Position numbers and translations under genes: made by a program
The notes under the pieces: model-generated
Told to the model about the DNA's origin: nothing
What the model saw: only the letters and a program-made list of their open reading frames with translations
Databases searched by the model: none
Shown: positions 6,307-16,879 of the stretch, piece by piece
Layout: each line of letters opens with the position of its first letter
How positions within the stretch are numbered: position 1 is the first letter of the stretch
UHGV virus genome: UHGV-0242872
DNA length: 45,782 nucleotides
Origin: a virus
Reading direction: 5' to 3' (one strand)

Positions 6307-6333
6307 AAGGCCCCTTTCGGGGCCTTTTTCTTA
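6307..6333. terminator. bidirectional intrinsic terminator
   Basis: AAGGCCCC-TTTC-GGGGCCTT hairpin with U-tract; lies between convergent genes ending at 6302 (+) and 6331 (-). Confidence 0.8.
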
Positions 6334-6885
6334 CAAACCTAATTTTAAAGCAATGTCTATAACGTTCGATTTAACGTCACCCGGTATGATGTAGGTGTCG
6401 TAATCTTTTACACCACTAACATCGTACAGATAGCCACGGCTATCGCCGATGAACGTATAGCCGTCACGATGGAGGCGGACGATTCGCACGTCATGCCCCG
6501 CGGCGACGATAGGGGCAACTTCACTGGCGAATCCACCGTCGGACACTACAAAAACTTCGTCGCCGTCAGGCAAGTTTTCAGCAAGATACTTACCGAAATA
6601 ATCATCGCCGAATACCGGTTTAATGAATTGCTCAGAAACGGCAATCATTAACTGGCGGCGGGACAACCCATTAAGAAAACCCTCGGGTTTTTCTTTCCGC
6701 GCCCGGTCGTCGTAGCCGTCGAGAAATTCGTGGTAAGCATCCTGGCCTAACGCTGCCAAAGCAATATTGAACATTGGATTCTTGAAACTGGTAGTTCCTT
6801 TCGCAAAGCCCATTTCTACCAGCGCCATAGCAAGCGTGTCTTTCCCGCAACCCGCAGGGCCATTAAGAATAATTACCTTAGCCAT
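6331..6885 (-). CDS. P-loop kinase (polynucleotide 5'-kinase or dNMP kinase-like)
   Basis: Walker A GPAGCGKDT near N-terminus; 184 aa; last gene of minus-strand moron cassette. Confidence 0.6.
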   Translation of the reverse strand: MAKVIILNGPAGCGKDTLAMALVEMGFAKGTTSFKNPMFNIALAALGQDAYHEFLDGYDDRARKEKPEGFLNGLSRRQLMIAVSEQFIKPVFGDDYFGKYLAENLPDGDEVFVVSDGGFASEVAPIVAAGHDVRIVRLHRDGYTFIGDSRGYLYDVSGVKDYDTYIIPGDVKSNVIDIALKLGL

Positions 6886-7373
6886 TATTTATCGCTCCCG
6901 TGTGGTTTTAAGTGTGTAGAGTTCCCGTTACAGTCGTATTCGGTAACTGCGTGTGCGGTTATGCCGAGGTCACGGAAATGCTTTATTACCGCGGGAGAGT
7001 CGTCGAATGCGCACAAGATTCTTTCCAGTCCGAAAGCACGCAACACCTCTTCTTTAATTACGATGTCTTTTCTGTTGTCGTGTTTGCTGCGCATGATTAG
7101 CGTGTCAAACCTAACGTTATTCTCTCGTAACCATTCGCGAGTCTCCTCCTCAGCGTCATCACTTCGCCCGGTAAGGATAATTATAGTAAGTCCGGAATGC
7201 CACAGTACGCTACACAAATGGATATTGTCGTATATCGGAGCGTCATCTTTGCAGGCCATGTTAAATGGCTTCCACGCCCACGTTTCTCCGTAGTTATCTT
7301 TTGGTAACAGGTGTAAGCGATGGGTACCGTCGGCCAATGTCCCGTCTAAATCGAAAATTACAATATCTTTCAT
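6885..7373 (-). CDS. HAD-superfamily phosphatase (Pnk 3'-phosphatase-like)
   Basis: HAD motifs FDLDGTL, ILTGR, RKDIVIKEE, AFDDS. Confidence 0.65.
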   Translation of the reverse strand: MKDIVIFDLDGTLADGTHRLHLLPKDNYGETWAWKPFNMACKDDAPIYDNIHLCSVLWHSGLTIIILTGRSDDAEEETREWLRENNVRFDTLIMRSKHDNRKDIVIKEEVLRAFGLERILCAFDDSPAVIKHFRDLGITAHAVTEYDCNGNSTHLKPHGSDK

Positions 7374-8500
7374 CCCAGCATCTCCGGTGAAATAGTTAAA
7401 CGTGCGACCTCGCCATATTCGGCGCTATAAGTAATTACATTTGCACTGCGGCCCGACATCCATCCGCCGCGAGAGGCGTAGGCGTCTTTAGCCGCTAAGG
7501 TGCGGTGTTGCTCAACAATCATGTTACGGCTTTCTACAATCTTCTGGTGGTGCAGATGGCCTACGTGGGCGTAGCTGTAAACACTCTCGCCGAACGCTTT
7601 ACGGAACTTGGCAATCATAACCGGTTCGATAGCGTCGAATCGTGCTTTATGCCCGTGATGGAAGAACAGCGTCGTTTTGCCGTGTTGCACCATCTTATAA
7701 ACATCCGGCGACGTATCGACGAATACACGAGGCTCGTTGTCGTACAGTGTGCTGAACATCTCCGCCAGCCAAATCATCCCGGATTCGTCGTGGTTCCCCT
7801 GAACTATAAGCAAGCGAACAGTTTTATGCTTAACCAGAGCCATATCAACAACACGGCGGACCATGCGAATCATGTAGCGGACAAGTTTCTGGTAACGCGT
7901 GTCGGCGTCAAGGACATGACCACTCGCCGGTGTAACGGCGTCAAGACTATCGAAGTGAGCTAAGTCGCCAAGAAGATTAATAACCCCCGTACCTGCATCC
8001 GGTGCTTTCTGAAACGCAGCATCAAACCAACGAGAGAATAAGTCCTCCGCGATTTTCATATCCCAGTCGTCGCCGCTCTCGTCAGCCCAGGCTAACATAC
8101 CGAGATGGAAATCAGACACGGTGTACAGGTTAAGCAGCTTGTCGTCACGTTTAGCCCGGGCGGCCTTAACTGGCGGAACGGGAGTAATCTCCGACTTCAT
8201 GCCTTCGACTACGGCTTTCATCAACTCAACCTGACGTTCGGCATCGGTGTCTGTCTTAACCCACTGCAACTTAGTGTTACCGAACTCGTCCACCAGAGAC
8301 GACGTGCCTTTAATCTTGTAGCCGTCTGGTACAAGGTGGCTTACGTCCCGCCCGTGGCCTACGCCTTTCTTAGCCAGCTTCGCTTTACGGATTCGGATAA
8401 CGCGGTCTGAGATTCCGTATTTACGGGCGATATCGATATTCTTCATCCCGGCGTTCAATTCTTCCTGTAATTGCTCGTCGGTTATTTTCTTCTGGGCCAT
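7370..8500 (-). CDS. HTH-domain calcineurin-like metallophosphoesterase
   Basis: ATG 8500 with GAGGAAGT SD (track ORF extends to 8605); N-terminal HTH; motifs DFHLG, GDLAHFD, GNHDE, HHGH. Confidence 0.65.
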   Translation of the reverse strand: MAQKKITDEQLQEELNAGMKNIDIARKYGISDRVIRIRKAKLAKKGVGHGRDVSHLVPDGYKIKGTSSLVDEFGNTKLQWVKTDTDAERQVELMKAVVEGMKSEITPVPPVKAARAKRDDKLLNLYTVSDFHLGMLAWADESGDDWDMKIAEDLFSRWFDAAFQKAPDAGTGVINLLGDLAHFDSLDAVTPASGHVLDADTRYQKLVRYMIRMVRRVVDMALVKHKTVRLLIVQGNHDESGMIWLAEMFSTLYDNEPRVFVDTSPDVYKMVQHGKTTLFFHHGHKARFDAIEPVMIAKFRKAFGESVYSYAHVGHLHHQKIVESRNMIVEQHRTLAAKDAYASRGGWMSGRSANVITYSAEYGEVARLTISPEMLG

Positions 8501-8538
8501 GCTTACTTCCTCGTGTTTAGGATTTGTCTTATAGTAGC

Positions 8539-8730
8539 CTACTTCTCTTTCACGTTCGAGTTGCAAGCCCAGATTAAAATGAATACCCACGGCAACAGAA
8601 TCCACCCGAGAAATAAGTTAGCCATGAATATCGCCAGCTTTGCTTTATGGTTACGCATATGTGCCACCAAAAACGGGATAAAATAAACGGCTACAAAAAT
8701 AATTAAGAAGAACATAGTGATACCGGTCAT
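8539..8730 (-). CDS. small two-TM membrane protein, Imm-like (possible superinfection exclusion)
   Basis: ATG 8730 with AGGAG SD; two hydrophobic helices; C-terminal NLFLGWILLPWVFILIWA. Confidence 0.5.
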   Translation of the reverse strand: MTGITMFFLIIFVAVYFIPFLVAHMRNHKAKLAIFMANLFLGWILLPWVFILIWACNSNVKEK

Positions 8731-8772
8731 AACATAACTCCTGATTTGAGATAACATCGTTGGTGTAAGTGA

Positions 8773-8801
8773 ATAGTACGCTATTATATTGGGGTGTGCA
8801 A
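8773..8801 (-). promoter_or_regulatory. sigma70-like promoter TTGCAC-N17-TACTAT for moron cassette
   Basis: -35 at 8801-8796, -10 at 8778-8773 on minus strand; AATAG-N4-CTATT palindrome 8772-8785 overlaps the -10. Confidence 0.55.
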
Positions 8802-8908
8802 GTAGTGTGCTAGAATAATTTTGCGCCTAGTGTCGCACACGAAAAGCGGGTGGTTCCCGTCTGGCGCATTTCCTTTAACCAGTAACCTCTTAACCAAAGG
8901 ATTAAAGA

Positions 8909-9325
8909 ATGAAACTTTCTGATTTTTATTACGAAGCGGAAGCCGAAAAGGGCGCACGTATGCCGATACCGCTAAAAGACGGTACTGATTCCGGGGAATG
9001 GCTTAATGTTGTTTCTCCTGAGGCGGACGTTGCCGTTAAGGCTATGCGCGCGTTCACCCTTGCATACCGGGCAGTATTAGGGAAATTAAAACCGCTTCGT
9101 GATAAGTGCGAAGAGATGAAAGATTTCTCTGAATACAACCTGAAGATGGAAGACGCGGCGACGGACCTTAACCGTCAGTTAGCGATTGAATTGGTTAACG
9201 GGTGGAGCCTTGACGACGAATTCAATAAAGAGAATCTGAACACACTCCTGACGCAATATAAACGACTCGCGGAACTTGTTGTTGTGTTTCATAACGAACA
9301 ACTGCACCAGCTACAGGAAAAGTAG
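8909..9325 (+). CDS. putative tail assembly chaperone (G-like)
   Basis: 138 aa ORF immediately upstream of tape measure gene; ends EK* on the slippery sequence GGAAAAG-TAG. Confidence 0.45.
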   Translation: MKLSDFYYEAEAEKGARMPIPLKDGTDSGEWLNVVSPEADVAVKAMRAFTLAYRAVLGKLKPLRDKCEEMKDFSEYNLKMEDAATDLNRQLAIELVNGWSLDDEFNKENLNTLLTQYKRLAELVVVFHNEQLHQLQEK

Positions 9326-9690
9326 ACGCGTTGCTCCAGTTCGCCCGTTGGAACTTCATAACCCGCCACAAACGGCGGGAATTTGACAGTATCGCCGATG
9401 GGCATAAAGCCGCGCTAATTGCTATGGGGGTTATGCAAGACGCGCCGGATGCAACGCAGGCCGCTGGGCCGGAATGCCCCCCTGAGCTACTAACCACATT
9501 TGAGAAGTACAGGGAAATTAAATTCACCCGCCGAGTGGACGACGACGGCATCAAGATGTACCCGCGCGAGCAATTACGATGGTCAGATTTAGTGGCGTAC
9601 AGCACCGTTTCAGGCCAGAATATAGGGATGTTCGAATCCGACATCATCATGAGCTTAGACGCTATTTTCGAGGGTAGAAACGATGGCTGA
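9322..9690 (+). CDS. putative -1 frameshift extension of tail assembly chaperone (GT-like)
   Basis: -1 frame is open only from 9295 and runs to 9690, overlapping the tape measure start; candidate slip at A-AAG (9319-9322) before stop TAG. Confidence 0.35.
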   Translation, partial: VDALLQFARWNFITRHKRREFDSIADGHKAALIAMGVMQDAPDATQAAGPECPPELLTTFEKYREIKFTRRVDDDGIKMYPREQLRWSDLVAYSTVSGQNIGMFESDIIMSLDAIFEGRNDG

Positions 9691-12022
9691 TGTAGCTAGT
9701 TTAGTAGTAAAAGTAACAGAGCAAGGCGCGAAAGCCACATCAGACCGTCTTGACAACCTTTCAAAGTCCGCAAAAGTAGCGGGGGCCGCCGTAGCAGGCC
9801 TTGCTTCTATCGTAGCGGCTACCGCGTATAAAGCTGCCCAAGAACTGGTTGACTCACAGCGGCAACTGGACAAGATGTCCGCCAGTTTGAAGACCTTAAC
9901 AGGAAGTACCCAAGGTGCTAAACAGGCGCTAAGTATCCTGCAAGATTTTGCCCGCGATACCCCATACGGACTGGAGCAGGCGGTGGAAGGCTTCCGTAAG
10001 CTGGTGGCCCTTGGCCTTACCCCATCCGAGGAGGCGTTGCGGTCCTACGGCAATACCGCATCGGCTATGGGCAAGGACCTTAATCAGATGATTGAGGCGG
10101 TAGCCGACGCCAGTACGTTTGAGTTCGAACGCCTAAAAGAATTCGGCATCAAAGCCAAGCAGAACAAAAACGACGTAGAGTTTACATTCCAGGGGACAAC
10201 AACCGTAGTTAAGAAAAGCGCTGCCGATATTGAGCAGTATTTACTTAATATTGGTAACGTAAATTTTGCCGGTGCCATGGCGGACCAGGCCAACACCCTT
10301 AATGGCGCTATCGCGAGCGCCAGTGACTCATGGTCGCAGCTAAAAATGACGCTTGCCACCAGTCTTGATGTTGGCGCACTTGCGGAACCTATCAGGTATA
10401 TCGATGACTTGATCCAGGAATTAAATGCGTCTGTTGCTTCCGGTGAATTAGCCGCTGAAATGCAGATGTGGGGCGACATAGCGTCGGAAGTAGGAAGCGC
10501 TATCGAGATGTCATTCGACGCTGCGTTTGGCTTTGTTGGTGATGCCATCAACGGGCTTAATGAACTGTGGGATTTCAGCAGCAAGAGTATTACCGATAGC
10601 GGAGAACAAACGGCCACCACCATCGCTGAATCCGCCGCCGATGCTCTTGACTTCATCGCGGAAGAGTTCACCGCGATGGAGAGATTCTTTGAAGATATGG
10701 TTAAAGGTGCTCAGGACGCTGGCCGTCTTGTACGCGCCGCTTTTACCCCCGGGGAATCAGTAGACGTAGCTAAAAATATCAACTTCCAGCTTGGCATGGC
10801 TTTGGATACCCAGCGCGATGTCGCCGACGTTACGCGTAAAAGTTTCCGCGAACAGGTAGAAGCTCAACAGGATATTGTAGCGTTAAAACGCGCGGCGTAT
10901 GACATCGATAAGGAGTCCGCAAAAGCTGAGGGGTTAAACAAATTTAAGGTAACCGGAACCGGCGGCGGTTCTGACGATGACGGGTCAGCCGCAAAAGCCG
11001 CTAAGAAAGCAGCGGACGCGTTCGAGCGCCAGAAAAAGGCGGCGGAAGACTTCTACTATCAGTCAATCCATCTTAATGATGACGTATTTCAGAAAATAGA
11101 AGCTAACCAGGAAGAGCAACTGTCTAAGTTGCAGGATTTTTATAGCAATAAGCTTCTTAGCGACCAACAGTACGAAAACGCCAAGACGCAGATTATGCTC
11201 TCTGCCGAACAGGCCCGCCAGGAAGAACTGGACAAGAAAAGGAAAGAAGCCCAGGAGAAGCAGCAGAAAGGTGATGATTTCATGGCTCAGATTATGGGCC
11301 AGAACGCCGCTGAGCTTGAGCTTCTTAACATTCAGGAACAGCAGAAACTGTCGGTAGCAGATAAGTACCGCGAGCAGGGTTTGATTAGTGAGAAGCAGTA
11401 TCAGGCCGCGCTTAACGCCATCAACGAGCAGTACGCAACCAAGCGTGCCGACGCAACGGCAACAGCTTTCGGTAACATGGCCTCAAACATCGGGTCTGCG
11501 TTGGGCGAGGCTTCTGGCGCGTATAAGGCATTCGCTATCGTACAGGCTACTATAGCCACGTACACCGCAGCTATTGAGGCATACAAGTCAACGGCCGCTA
11601 TCCCTGTAGTTGGCCCGTTCCTGGCCCCTGTAGCCGCTGCCGCTGCCGTCGGGGCAGGTATGGCGCAGATTTCCGCTATCAGGTCAGCACGTGAACAGGG
11701 TGGACAGTTATCCGCCGGGCAGGCTTCCACCATCGCTGAACGCGGTAAACCCGAAGTTATCATGCCCGCTGGCGCATCGCGTGTGCGCACCGCGCAGCAG
11801 ATGAAAGAAATTATGGGGCAAAACGGGTCTTCTTCCGGCCCATCTAATGTTACCATTGTAAATAATACATCGAGTCAGATTGGCAACGTATCCACCGAGC
11901 AGGATGATGAAGGCCGTCTGCGTATCATCATAGAAGAGCAAGTTGCTGCATCTTTGCAGAACAGCAACAGTAAGATTAGCAAGGCCCGCAAGGCCACAAG
12001 AAACGCGCCGGGGTTTAAATAA
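9683..12022 (+). CDS. tail tape measure protein
   Basis: 779 aa, long helical low-complexity protein in canonical position. Confidence 0.85.
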   Translation: MADVASLVVKVTEQGAKATSDRLDNLSKSAKVAGAAVAGLASIVAATAYKAAQELVDSQRQLDKMSASLKTLTGSTQGAKQALSILQDFARDTPYGLEQAVEGFRKLVALGLTPSEEALRSYGNTASAMGKDLNQMIEAVADASTFEFERLKEFGIKAKQNKNDVEFTFQGTTTVVKKSAADIEQYLLNIGNVNFAGAMADQANTLNGAIASASDSWSQLKMTLATSLDVGALAEPIRYIDDLIQELNASVASGELAAEMQMWGDIASEVGSAIEMSFDAAFGFVGDAINGLNELWDFSSKSITDSGEQTATTIAESAADALDFIAEEFTAMERFFEDMVKGAQDAGRLVRAAFTPGESVDVAKNINFQLGMALDTQRDVADVTRKSFREQVEAQQDIVALKRAAYDIDKESAKAEGLNKFKVTGTGGGSDDDGSAAKAAKKAADAFERQKKAAEDFYYQSIHLNDDVFQKIEANQEEQLSKLQDFYSNKLLSDQQYENAKTQIMLSAEQARQEELDKKRKEAQEKQQKGDDFMAQIMGQNAAELELLNIQEQQKLSVADKYREQGLISEKQYQAALNAINEQYATKRADATATAFGNMASNIGSALGEASGAYKAFAIVQATIATYTAAIEAYKSTAAIPVVGPFLAPVAAAAAVGAGMAQISAIRSAREQGGQLSAGQASTIAERGKPEVIMPAGASRVRTAQQMKEIMGQNGSSSGPSNVTIVNNTSSQIGNVSTEQDDEGRLRIIIEEQVAASLQNSNSKISKARKATRNAPGFK

Positions 12023-14321: not shown

Positions 14322-16879
14322 TCCTGCACTACACGCGAAATGCCGACGGGGCTTTCGACCGTACAAAACACGTCGGGATGCCGATAGATTTTGTCGTTAA
14401 CCATATTCCTGACGGGGTGCCTGCGCGCGTCTACCTCGGCGAGATTGGCGATGATACTGATGTTACAGACGACTTCGAAGCGCTTAAAGACGAAGACGCC
14501 GTGTATCATATTATAGAGGGTGCTGGCGGCGGCATCGGCGACGCTATCGGTAGTGTATTCAGTTTCATCCTTAAGCCAATTGCCAAATTGTTCGGGCTAA
14601 ACACAGCAGCTAACGCTAATTATTCCGCTACCAACAATCAGGCTACGTCGCCTAACAACAGTCTTACTGACCGCTCAAACAAGCCACGACCTTACGAGCG
14701 TTCTTATGATATCTGCGGGACAGTGCAGACCATCCCCAATGACCTGATGCAAACATATAAGGTGTTTAATGCCTCTGGGGTACTTATTGAATATGCGTAC
14801 TATGACGCCGGTCGAGGGTATCTGCATATTGAGGAAGACGGTGTAACTGAGGCAGATACCCGAATCAGCGAGATAACTGGCTCGTCAGTGGCGGTGTATT
14901 CCCCTTACACTTCGCCGAATAACACCAACGCCCCACAATTGCATATTGGCGACCCGATAGACCAGAAATTGTACGTTACATTTAAAAACGCCGATGTCGA
15001 TGGCGCTGTTCTTCCCGCCCCTAATGATATCGCTATAGACGTGCAGGACTACACTGTCCAGCGGCAGGGAACAACCGGCGTTGTAGTAGGCGATGACGCT
15101 GGTTTCGATGAGTTTTTGGCGGTCGGGGACCTGGCATACTTCGATAACGTATATGCGGATACAACCCCAGGGTCTTTGGGTAATGAGGTTAACCTGGACG
15201 GGAGGTACACGGTTCTTTCTGTTAGTGAAACGACCCTTATTGTGGACGTCAGTACAAATCAATCAATATGGAACCAGCTAGGGTCATCGGTGTGGTTTAT
15301 AGGTGAAGAGGGTAACCATCTTATAGGCCCGGCGGACACTTACGCGGCTTCTCTCTCTGAATGGGCGTACATCACCCGCGGTACTGTCGACCGTGTTGTA
15401 GCCAATGTCGCCGCCAGCAACGGCATGTATAAATACAACGGCGACTATAACCGCGCTTCAGTGACAGTGGAACTGCAATACCAGATGGTTGATGAGCTGA
15501 AACAGCCTGTAGGTGATATATTTACTGTACAAGGAACCGTAACAGGCCGGAACACGGATTACACAGGTATTACTCTTTACGGAAGTTTACCAACTGCTTC
15601 CAGATTCCGCGCCCGTATGCGTCGTGTTTCCGACACCGATAAAGATTTTGAAGGTACTGTTAGTGATGAGGTTACTTTCACTAATCTGTACGGGCAGTCA
15701 CTGGACACAACACCGCACTACGGCAACCGCACTACCGTACACTGCGCTCGTAAACAAACGCCACGTGCCGCGGAGGTGTCAGAACCGGAACTACGCATGA
15801 TAGCAACCGAGATGTGTTACAAATACTTAGGTAACGGCATATTCGATACGGTAATGTCCCCAAATACGCAGGCAGTGCAATCACTAATCAGACTTGCTCG
15901 CGACCCGGCGGTAGGTAATCTGGAACTGACAACGGCAAACATGGACAAGTTACTTGCCGTGCAGGAAGAAATTGAGTCGTATTTTGGCAGTGAATTAGCC
16001 GGGCAGTTCTGCTACACATTCGACGACTACGACACAACCATGCAAGACATCGTTCAGACCATCGCGGAAGCCGTGTTTTGTACGGCATACCGTAAAGGTG
16101 CTGATATTATGCTGCGATTCGACCGTCCTGTTGCGGGGCCTGAGATGGTTTTCACCCACCGCAGCAAAACGACCGGTACGGAGAAATGGACGCGCACGTT
16201 CAACGATTCGACAACCTATGATAGCCTGTCGTTCTCATACATCGACCCGGATACTAACGTACAGGAAACGATTTATATCCCGGAAGAACTCGGAGCAAAC
16301 ACCGAGGAATATGAATCGAAGGGCGTACGTAACTATCAGCAGGCATATTGGCTGGCGTGGCGTCGCTACCAGCGCAACGCGTTAAGTAAAGTTGTCGTAG
16401 AGTTCGAAGCTACCGAAGAGGGTGCACTCGCTACACCGGGTGGTGTAATCAGCGTGGTTAAAGGTTCACGTATCGCGCCTCAGGATGGTTATGTTGTTGC
16501 CGTTAATGGGCTTACGCTGACACTGTCTCAGCCAGTTACGTTTACCCCCGGAGACGACCACTCCATCATTCTTAAGAAGCGCGATGGCTCTGTGCAGAGT
16601 ATCTCTGTTATCAAAGGAAGCCATGACCGCGAAGTGATTATGCTCTCTGCGCCGGAGGAGGCAATCTACACGGGGAATAGCGCACTAAAAACTGAGTTTT
16701 CATTCGGCAACGAAGCAAGGCATAATGCCCAGAAGATAGTTGTTTCTTCAATCGACCCGGGCGACGACCGCACGGTCAAGATTACTGGTTACAACTATGA
16801 CGACGGATTCTATAAATACGACGGCGTCGCGCCATACGGCAGCGGTTTCTCCGACGGATTCAGCAATGGTTTTAATTAA
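14312..16879 (+). CDS. tail tip / host-specificity protein (J-like)
   Basis: 855 aa; TTG start with GGAG SD 8 nt upstream; largest tail tip component. Confidence 0.5.
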   Translation: MAIILHYTRNADGAFDRTKHVGMPIDFVVNHIPDGVPARVYLGEIGDDTDVTDDFEALKDEDAVYHIIEGAGGGIGDAIGSVFSFILKPIAKLFGLNTAANANYSATNNQATSPNNSLTDRSNKPRPYERSYDICGTVQTIPNDLMQTYKVFNASGVLIEYAYYDAGRGYLHIEEDGVTEADTRISEITGSSVAVYSPYTSPNNTNAPQLHIGDPIDQKLYVTFKNADVDGAVLPAPNDIAIDVQDYTVQRQGTTGVVVGDDAGFDEFLAVGDLAYFDNVYADTTPGSLGNEVNLDGRYTVLSVSETTLIVDVSTNQSIWNQLGSSVWFIGEEGNHLIGPADTYAASLSEWAYITRGTVDRVVANVAASNGMYKYNGDYNRASVTVELQYQMVDELKQPVGDIFTVQGTVTGRNTDYTGITLYGSLPTASRFRARMRRVSDTDKDFEGTVSDEVTFTNLYGQSLDTTPHYGNRTTVHCARKQTPRAAEVSEPELRMIATEMCYKYLGNGIFDTVMSPNTQAVQSLIRLARDPAVGNLELTTANMDKLLAVQEEIESYFGSELAGQFCYTFDDYDTTMQDIVQTIAEAVFCTAYRKGADIMLRFDRPVAGPEMVFTHRSKTTGTEKWTRTFNDSTTYDSLSFSYIDPDTNVQETIYIPEELGANTEEYESKGVRNYQQAYWLAWRRYQRNALSKVVVEFEATEEGALATPGGVISVVKGSRIAPQDGYVVAVNGLTLTLSQPVTFTPGDDHSIILKKRDGSVQSISVIKGSHDREVIMLSAPEEAIYTGNSALKTEFSFGNEARHNAQKIVVSSIDPGDDRTVKITGYNYDDGFYKYDGVAPYGSGFSDGFSNGFN

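Follow-up and report, generated by a model that had tools for sequence, protein, structure and literature searches.

A T4 Imm-like superinfection-exclusion candidate encoded within the tail gene block of a Kagunavirus

Does a short, hydrophobic reading frame lying within the tail gene block of a virulent siphovirus encode a superinfection-immunity protein of the T4 Imm type, and at which step of infection would such a protein act? The window, i.e., the whole stretch of 45,782 nucleotides analysed here (UHGV virus genome UHGV-0242872), is a Kagunavirus (Guernseyvirinae) genome; over 7000-10000, its identity is 100% with Escherichia phage vB_EcoS_SCS44 and 99.9% with Escherichia phage VB_EcoS-Golestan. 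In the latter, the RefSeq CDS at the same place (FDJ09_gp22, YP_009620102.1) is named 'immunity to superinfection', and both the Schulenberg orthologue QEG06814 (PMC6763661) and Gp_027 of Salmonella phage SeF1 (PMC9409062) have been described as T4 Imm-like. The Golestan, Schulenberg, and SeF1 orthologues are the same gene at the same locus, nothing of substance differs from the window, and those calls are predictions too. The imm gene call is, therefore, already known from the RefSeq annotation of a near-identical phage and from papers on relatives.

Reading frame and family membership

The gene extends over 8539..8730 on the minus strand and codes for 63 aa (MTGITMFFLIIFVAVYFIPFLVAHMRNHKAKLAIFMANLFLGWILLPWVFILIWACNSNVKEK) followed by the stop codon TAG at 8541..8539. 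The ATG at 8730 is preceded by the Shine-Dalgarno sequence AGGAG (8738..8742, minus strand; read from the sequence), with a 7-nt spacer, and it is the start adopted by RefSeq for Golestan; the limits 8539-8730 that a first-pass annotation of the window had assigned to this gene are, accordingly, exact. Moreover, a purine-rich block (GGAG, GGGG, or GAGG) is kept at the Shine-Dalgarno position across all aligned relatives. Mechanical ORF calling yields a longer frame of 72 aa that begins at an upstream ATG (8757), which is devoid of a Shine-Dalgarno sequence and missing from six close relatives (L005-L008, L010, L011). At the other end, the first-pass annotation had closed the protein at an IWA motif, and this has to be corrected, as 8 more residues (CNSNVKEK) come after it.

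The frame 8539..8730 is a real gene, as attested by its Pfam E-value (given below), its occurrence in related genomes, and its mode of evolution. Specifically, a scan of IMG/VR delivers 36 related loci of the genera Kagunavirus and Jerseyvirus, and imm is found at the same position in every one of them (36/36), with a dN/dS of ~0.05 within allele classes at dS 0.3-0.7, indicative of strong purifying selection. When the 650 open frames in all six frames of the window are compared with the family profile, imm alone matches (E = 4e-30), the next best frame reaching 0.099. An orthologous imm-like ORF with 68% identity over the full length is also present, unannotated in RefSeq, at 15768-15956 of Raoultella phage RP180 (NC_048181.1).

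The attribution to the superinfection-immunity family of T4 Imm, which the first-pass annotation had made and for which it had proposed a Pfam Imm_superinfect profile search, is borne out by that search and by three others. The protein scores 51.0 bits against Pfam PF14373 Imm_superinfect (gathering cut-off 27.9, E = 1.3e-13), with a match that covers profile positions 1-42 of 42 and corresponds to protein residues 15-56; in the same run, T4 Imm (from NC_000866) scores 58.2 bits. The protein also matches PHROG 1039 'immunity to superinfection' (E = 3e-24), and BLASTP aligns it to T4 Imm without gaps, with 15/54 identical positions (28%, 38.9 bits, pairwise E = 6e-11). Lastly, a tblastn search of 50,697 phage records with the window protein matches 1192 of them, including the annotated imm genes of T-even phages, for which E ranges from 1e-5 to 7e-3 over the whole phage collection. 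In an alignment of 81 sequences, the invariant columns (P19, W48, W54) and those conserved at 90% or more (Y16, F17, A23, R26, H28, I34, N38, G42, W43) are all retained in the window protein, and the family signature, consisting of Y-F-x-P, R-x-H, N-L-x-L-G-W, and two further Trp residues, is complete. The lone departure is P47, a position held by Gly in most members, T4 included.

The comparison with T4 Imm (NP_049660, 83 aa), the founding member of PF14373, reveals the same Pfam domain at full length, the same order of parts (an N-terminal helix and then the conserved core), and the retention of R33 and W50, which align to R26 and W43 of the window protein in the BLASTP alignment and are both conserved family-wide; furthermore, both proteins are encoded by virulent phages. 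Conversely, the window protein is 20 residues shorter and devoid of the C-terminal hydrophilic tail of T4 Imm, has Pro instead of Gly just before the second conserved Trp, and belongs to a siphovirus whose tape measure protein (TMP) is unrelated in sequence to T4 gp29. The genomic settings also diverge, as the window gene is located inside the tail gene block and adjoins the tail assembly chaperone (TAC) and TMP genes, whereas T4 imm adjoins DNA-metabolism genes; unlike T4 Imm, the window protein is known from sequence and predicted structure alone.

The family is large: an exhaustive search at E <= 0.001 collects 6604 cluster representatives (50% identity clusters), and the family size is taken from this search, as a word-indexed protein search returns only 10 close relatives. 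Cluster look-ups of ten family representatives provide almost no names, and a genome scan with a 13-sequence alignment retrieves relatives in genomes of many bacterial phyla. In a 13-kb scaffold of a Bacteroidota assembly (L040, Taishania pollutisoli scaffold23), a Jerseyvirus-type Imm with 78% identity over residues 15-63 is found, which is probably phage contamination of the assembly and not a resident gene. NCBIfam and PADLOC scans of the Imm protein and of its operon partners give no meaningful match, with no match at all for the partners in PADLOC.

Transcription unit and genomic setting

On the minus strand, imm (8730-8539) is followed by the genes for a metallophosphoesterase (8500-7370), a phosphatase (7373-6885), and a kinase (6885-6331). 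The four make up one unit, with imm as its first gene, which adjoins the gene of a putative tail protein (Golestan gp18) on one side and the TAC/TMP genes on the other. The second gene (7370..8500, minus strand), located 36 nt downstream of imm, codes for a metallophosphoesterase annotated as 'DNA repair exonuclease' (PHROG 704, E = 1.5e-167), with Pfam Metallophos_2, Metallophos, and GerE all under their cut-offs, and it is present in 36/36 related loci. The third gene (6885..7373, minus strand) codes for the phosphatase domain of a HAD-type polynucleotide kinase-phosphatase (PF25109 HAD_PNKP, 73 bits), and the last gene of the unit (6331..6885, minus strand) for a P-loop, dNMP-kinase-like kinase (PHROG 139, E = 1.3e-44); these two are variable accessory genes that occur in 13/36 related loci, always together. 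Taken together, the three genes after imm resemble the end-healing functions of polynucleotide kinase-phosphatases, here distributed among individual genes, with no ligase. At the N-terminus of the metallophosphoesterase (8407-8500, minus strand; residues ~5-45), weak helix-turn-helix matches are also detected, all below cut-offs (GerE/LuxR, E = 0.008; PHROG 836 'late transcriptional activator', E = 0.001; FixJ, E = 0.003), which might mean that the nuclease/phosphatase carries a DNA-binding head. Downstream of the kinase gene, a bidirectional terminator-like hairpin (6307..6326; AAGGCCCC-TTTC-GGGGCCTT, 8 pairs), found on both strands, closes both the imm unit and the upstream plus-strand tail genes.

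According to the first-pass annotation, imm is the first gene after the promoter of a cassette. It is indeed the first minus-strand gene past the divergent region 8731-8908, while the promoter is predicted only. Specifically, a candidate sigma-70 promoter of the imm unit lies at 8773..8801 on the minus strand, with a -35 element TTGCAC (8801..8796), a 17-nt spacer, and a -10 element TACTAT (8778..8773), and it is overlapped by a perfect TATAAT (8788..8783) that represents an alternative -10. The minus-strand transcript would start near 8766. In an alignment of the 36 intergenic regions, the Jerseyvirus loci carry TTGCAT-N17-TATTAT in the same columns. A consensus promoter scan finds none in the imm/TAC intergenic region and misses this candidate because its -35 element matches at only 3/6 positions; the imm promoter is thus a predicted one, a weak -35/-10 pair read from conservation alone.

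The same divergent region harbours an RNA-like element. Rfam RF02996 'int-alpA RNA' matches the plus strand at 8820-8884 over the full model with 36.6 bits (cut-off 35.8), in the middle of the imm/TAC intergenic region and just upstream of the TAC start (8909). Across Kagunavirus and Jerseyvirus, this int-alpA-like element is the best-conserved intergenic part; across 12 distinct sequences, 94% of the cells are paired and compensatory changes occur at 3 pairs, while several G-U pairs work on the plus strand only. An extended -10 element (TGcTAGAAT) is located at 8809-8817, from which the tail-operon transcript would begin near 8824, at the 5' edge of the element. The RF02996 cut-off is passed only by the window and by L016, and 11 other related loci remain below it.

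The designation of the cassette as a 'moron' does not hold for imm. All 36 loci, which belong to a virulent lineage, have both imm and the metallophosphoesterase gene at this site. The genome is without an integrase or repressor set, and the genus Kagunavirus is described as lytic in the literature; hence, imm is a core gene of a virulent lineage. The part of the moron definition that concerns a separate promoter and terminator is plausible, and the term fits only the kinase and phosphatase genes, since these are confined to 13/36 loci whereas imm and its immediate neighbour are invariably present.

Membrane architecture, allele classes, and the tape measure protein

The protein contains two hydrophobic stretches (residues 1-27 and 31-58, with Kyte-Doolittle 19-residue peaks of 2.75 and 2.18) and had previously been described as a two-TM protein. 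Only the count of stretches stands: the AlphaFold2 model computed with the 81-sequence alignment (pLDDT 96.7) places helices at residues 3-16, 18-25 (with a kink at P19), 31-41, and 45-55, and the second stretch has no single long TM helix, being a pair of short helices (31-41 and 45-55) linked by the G42-W43-I44 loop. 'Two-TM' is therefore a simplification. T4 Imm is described as having one N-terminal helix and three helices that form a conserved hydrophobic core (10.64898/2026.03.06.709160), and the modelled architecture of the window protein agrees with this description. Membrane-protein architecture is, thus, predicted with high confidence. PDB copies searched by sequence profile and by fold contain no solved structure of a family member.

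The N-terminal helix falls within a deeply diverged allele island (about 8640..8760, minus strand) that comprises the 5' UTR/RBS and codons 1-25. The Kagunavirus Imm proteins form two classes, whose differences are confined to residues 1-25, the other 38 being almost identical: class A, to which the window belongs, reads MTGITMFFLIIFVAVYFIPFLVAHM, and class B reads MSSLPVSLILFALLAYFAPFLVAYF (beginning MSSLPVSL...). The Jerseyvirus Imm, of 59 aa, has a shorter N-terminus. The DNA identity of the island amounts to 43-63% against L018 and to 50-77% against L016, and in L016 both flanks are 87-100% identical. In the N-terminal island, dN is 0.60, versus 0.027 downstream, and third-codon-position identity is 33% in codons 2-25 (~28% expected) versus 71% in codons 26-63. 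Each allele class is under purifying selection (dN/dS ~0.05). Positive selection was considered for the N-terminal 24 codons, at which dN/dS between the classes reaches 2.4, and dismissed, since the synonymous sites are saturated, as the third-position identity close to expectation indicates. The island is an old mosaic segment with no demonstrable positive selection.

The TMP gene (9683..12022, plus strand; an ORF annotated as TMP in Golestan) codes for the presumed target of Imm, a member of the protein class that T4 Imm binds. Its product scores 36.3 bits against PF20155 TMP_3, below the cut-off of 41, and contains a hydrophobic segment at aa 636-666 (hydropathy). No similarity to T4 gp29 is detectable (best pairwise E = 0.23; different Pfam families), and, therefore, the contact between Imm and the TMP is not transferable by homology. 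In 29/31 loci, the class of Imm tracks that of TAC/TMP, the two exceptions being the recombinants L011 and L016, while the class of the adjacent metallophosphoesterase assorts independently of the Imm class. The association could reflect a matching of specificities or linkage only, with common ancestry and physical linkage as confounders. TAC and TMP (window 9683-12022; L011, L013-L027) exist in sharply different classes with 52-60% protein identity, while the metallophosphoesterase is 94-100% identical; from the sequences, this pattern indicates that the tail module has probably been exchanged, the breakpoint lying within imm or beside it.

Proposed action at genome entry and alternative readings

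The reading favoured here, by analogy with T4 and with moderate confidence, is that the protein resides in the inner membrane and stops the genome translocation of later related phages, probably by binding their TMP. Specifically, Imm would be a 63-residue inner-membrane protein composed of an N-terminal membrane helix and of the core Y-F-x-P...R-x-H...N-L-x-L-G-W...W...W-A, produced during infection from a minus-strand transcription unit of its own within the tail gene block. The infected cell would refuse the DNA of later phages of the same or a related kind while their adsorption proceeds, the block being the translocation of the genome across the inner membrane; as the most likely route, the Imm core would bind the incoming TMP and prevent the membrane conduit, as reported for T4 Imm and gp29. 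It is the exclusion phenotype, the blocked step, and the target that we infer. For T4, a 2026 preprint (10.64898/2026.03.06.709160) reports that Imm and a fragment of the tape measure protein gp29 co-purify, and that exclusion is weakened by two substitutions, R33A, located in the core, and W50A, located in a loop that faces the TMP. In the AlphaFold2 model of the window protein, W43, the equivalent of T4 W50, sits in the predicted inter-helix loop 42-44.

For exclusion experiments on Guernseyvirinae Imm homologues, the literature searched offers annotations only, and the CRISPRi-ART and BASEL papers contain nothing on the imm gene. To our knowledge, T4 Imm is the sole characterised member of the very large PF14373 family, and the transfer of function, therefore, rests on one data point. 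As to timing, T4 imm is an early gene. In RNA-seq of Kagunavirus K1B4, the imm homologue falls into the class that peaks last, as do the genes for DNA polymerase and methylase; the classes come from an unsynchronised 120-min course and are too coarse for the timing of imm (PMC12645636).

Outside the family, the nearest functional parallels are HK97 gp15 and P22 SieA, small inner-membrane proteins that halt genome entry after adsorption, as Imm would do. HK97 gp15 is proposed, in work cited by the T4 preprint (10.64898/2026.03.06.709160), to act through the TMP, and P22 SieA blocks DNA entry (PMC10461980). Unlike the window gene, which belongs to a virulent phage, these two are expressed from prophages of temperate siphoviruses or podoviruses, and neither is among the Pfam and PHROG matches of the window protein.

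Exclusion at DNA entry might also proceed through a host inner-membrane component or the membrane itself and not through TMP binding, a route that is unlikely, although several observations speak for it. No similarity links the TMP of the window to T4 gp29, and the conserved core of Imm is near-identical from Kagunavirus to Jerseyvirus despite a TMP identity down to 52-60%. Moreover, the recombinants L011 and L016, which combine an Imm of one class with a TMP of the other (A with B, or B with A), are easier to accept if Imm need not match the TMP, and the Imm family is widespread in bacterial genomes. However, we know of no host partner for any Imm-family member, and the T4 interface residues are conserved in the window protein. 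Furthermore, the T4 Imm-TMP complex has been purified, and its interface mutants lose activity (10.64898/2026.03.06.709160).

It is likewise improbable that this Imm-family protein mainly protects or conditions the membrane of the infected cell, e.g., against secondary-adsorption damage or in the timing of lysis, as a holin/antiholin-like accessory and not primarily in exclusion. The protein is small and very hydrophobic, T4 Imm has been likened to a holin, with imm mutants shortening lysis-inhibited latent periods (PMC6832632), and the K1B4 study assigns the homologue to the late-peaking genes and labels it lysis-related (PMC12645636). That label, however, is an annotation and not an experiment, and imm is co-oriented with nucleic-acid enzymes, not with lysis genes, which lie far away in the genome as a holin pair and an endolysin, with the spanin genes separate too; neither are holin families found among the Pfam and PHROG matches. 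A role as the lysis holin proper is unlikely, as the two holins and the endolysin are located elsewhere, ~27 kb away on the Golestan map.

Lastly, there is next to no chance that the frame is a non-functional ORF whose Pfam match reflects hydrophobic composition, a reading suggested by its shortness and hydrophobicity, by the lack of NCBIfam and PADLOC matches, and by its missing annotation in at least one relative (phage RP180), but in practice already ruled out by the conservation data (the ORF in 36/36 loci, a dN/dS of ~0.05 at dS 0.3-0.7, and a conserved start codon and RBS), besides a full-length profile match that is 23 bits over the cut-off, with the signature residues all correctly placed, and unique to 1/650 six-frame open frames.

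The two classes of N-terminal helix, deeply diverged from each other yet each conserved in itself, are, together with the RBS, tentatively proposed as specificity alleles, each excluding phages of a particular tape-measure/tail class, an idea that is rather doubtful. If true, such alleles would divide the virulent Kagunaviruses that circulate together into 'exclusion groups' and would explain why imm adjoins the TAC/TMP genes and mostly travels with them. In practical terms, the gene bears on phage cocktails: Kagunaviruses serve as agents against E. coli of the uropathogenic and K1 types, and an Imm-like protein, if active, would lead to interference between related phages in mixed infections. 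With the imm gene of the window, a siphovirus also becomes available as a small and tractable system for testing whether the mechanism recently proposed for T4 Imm, action on the tape measure protein, extends across PF14373.
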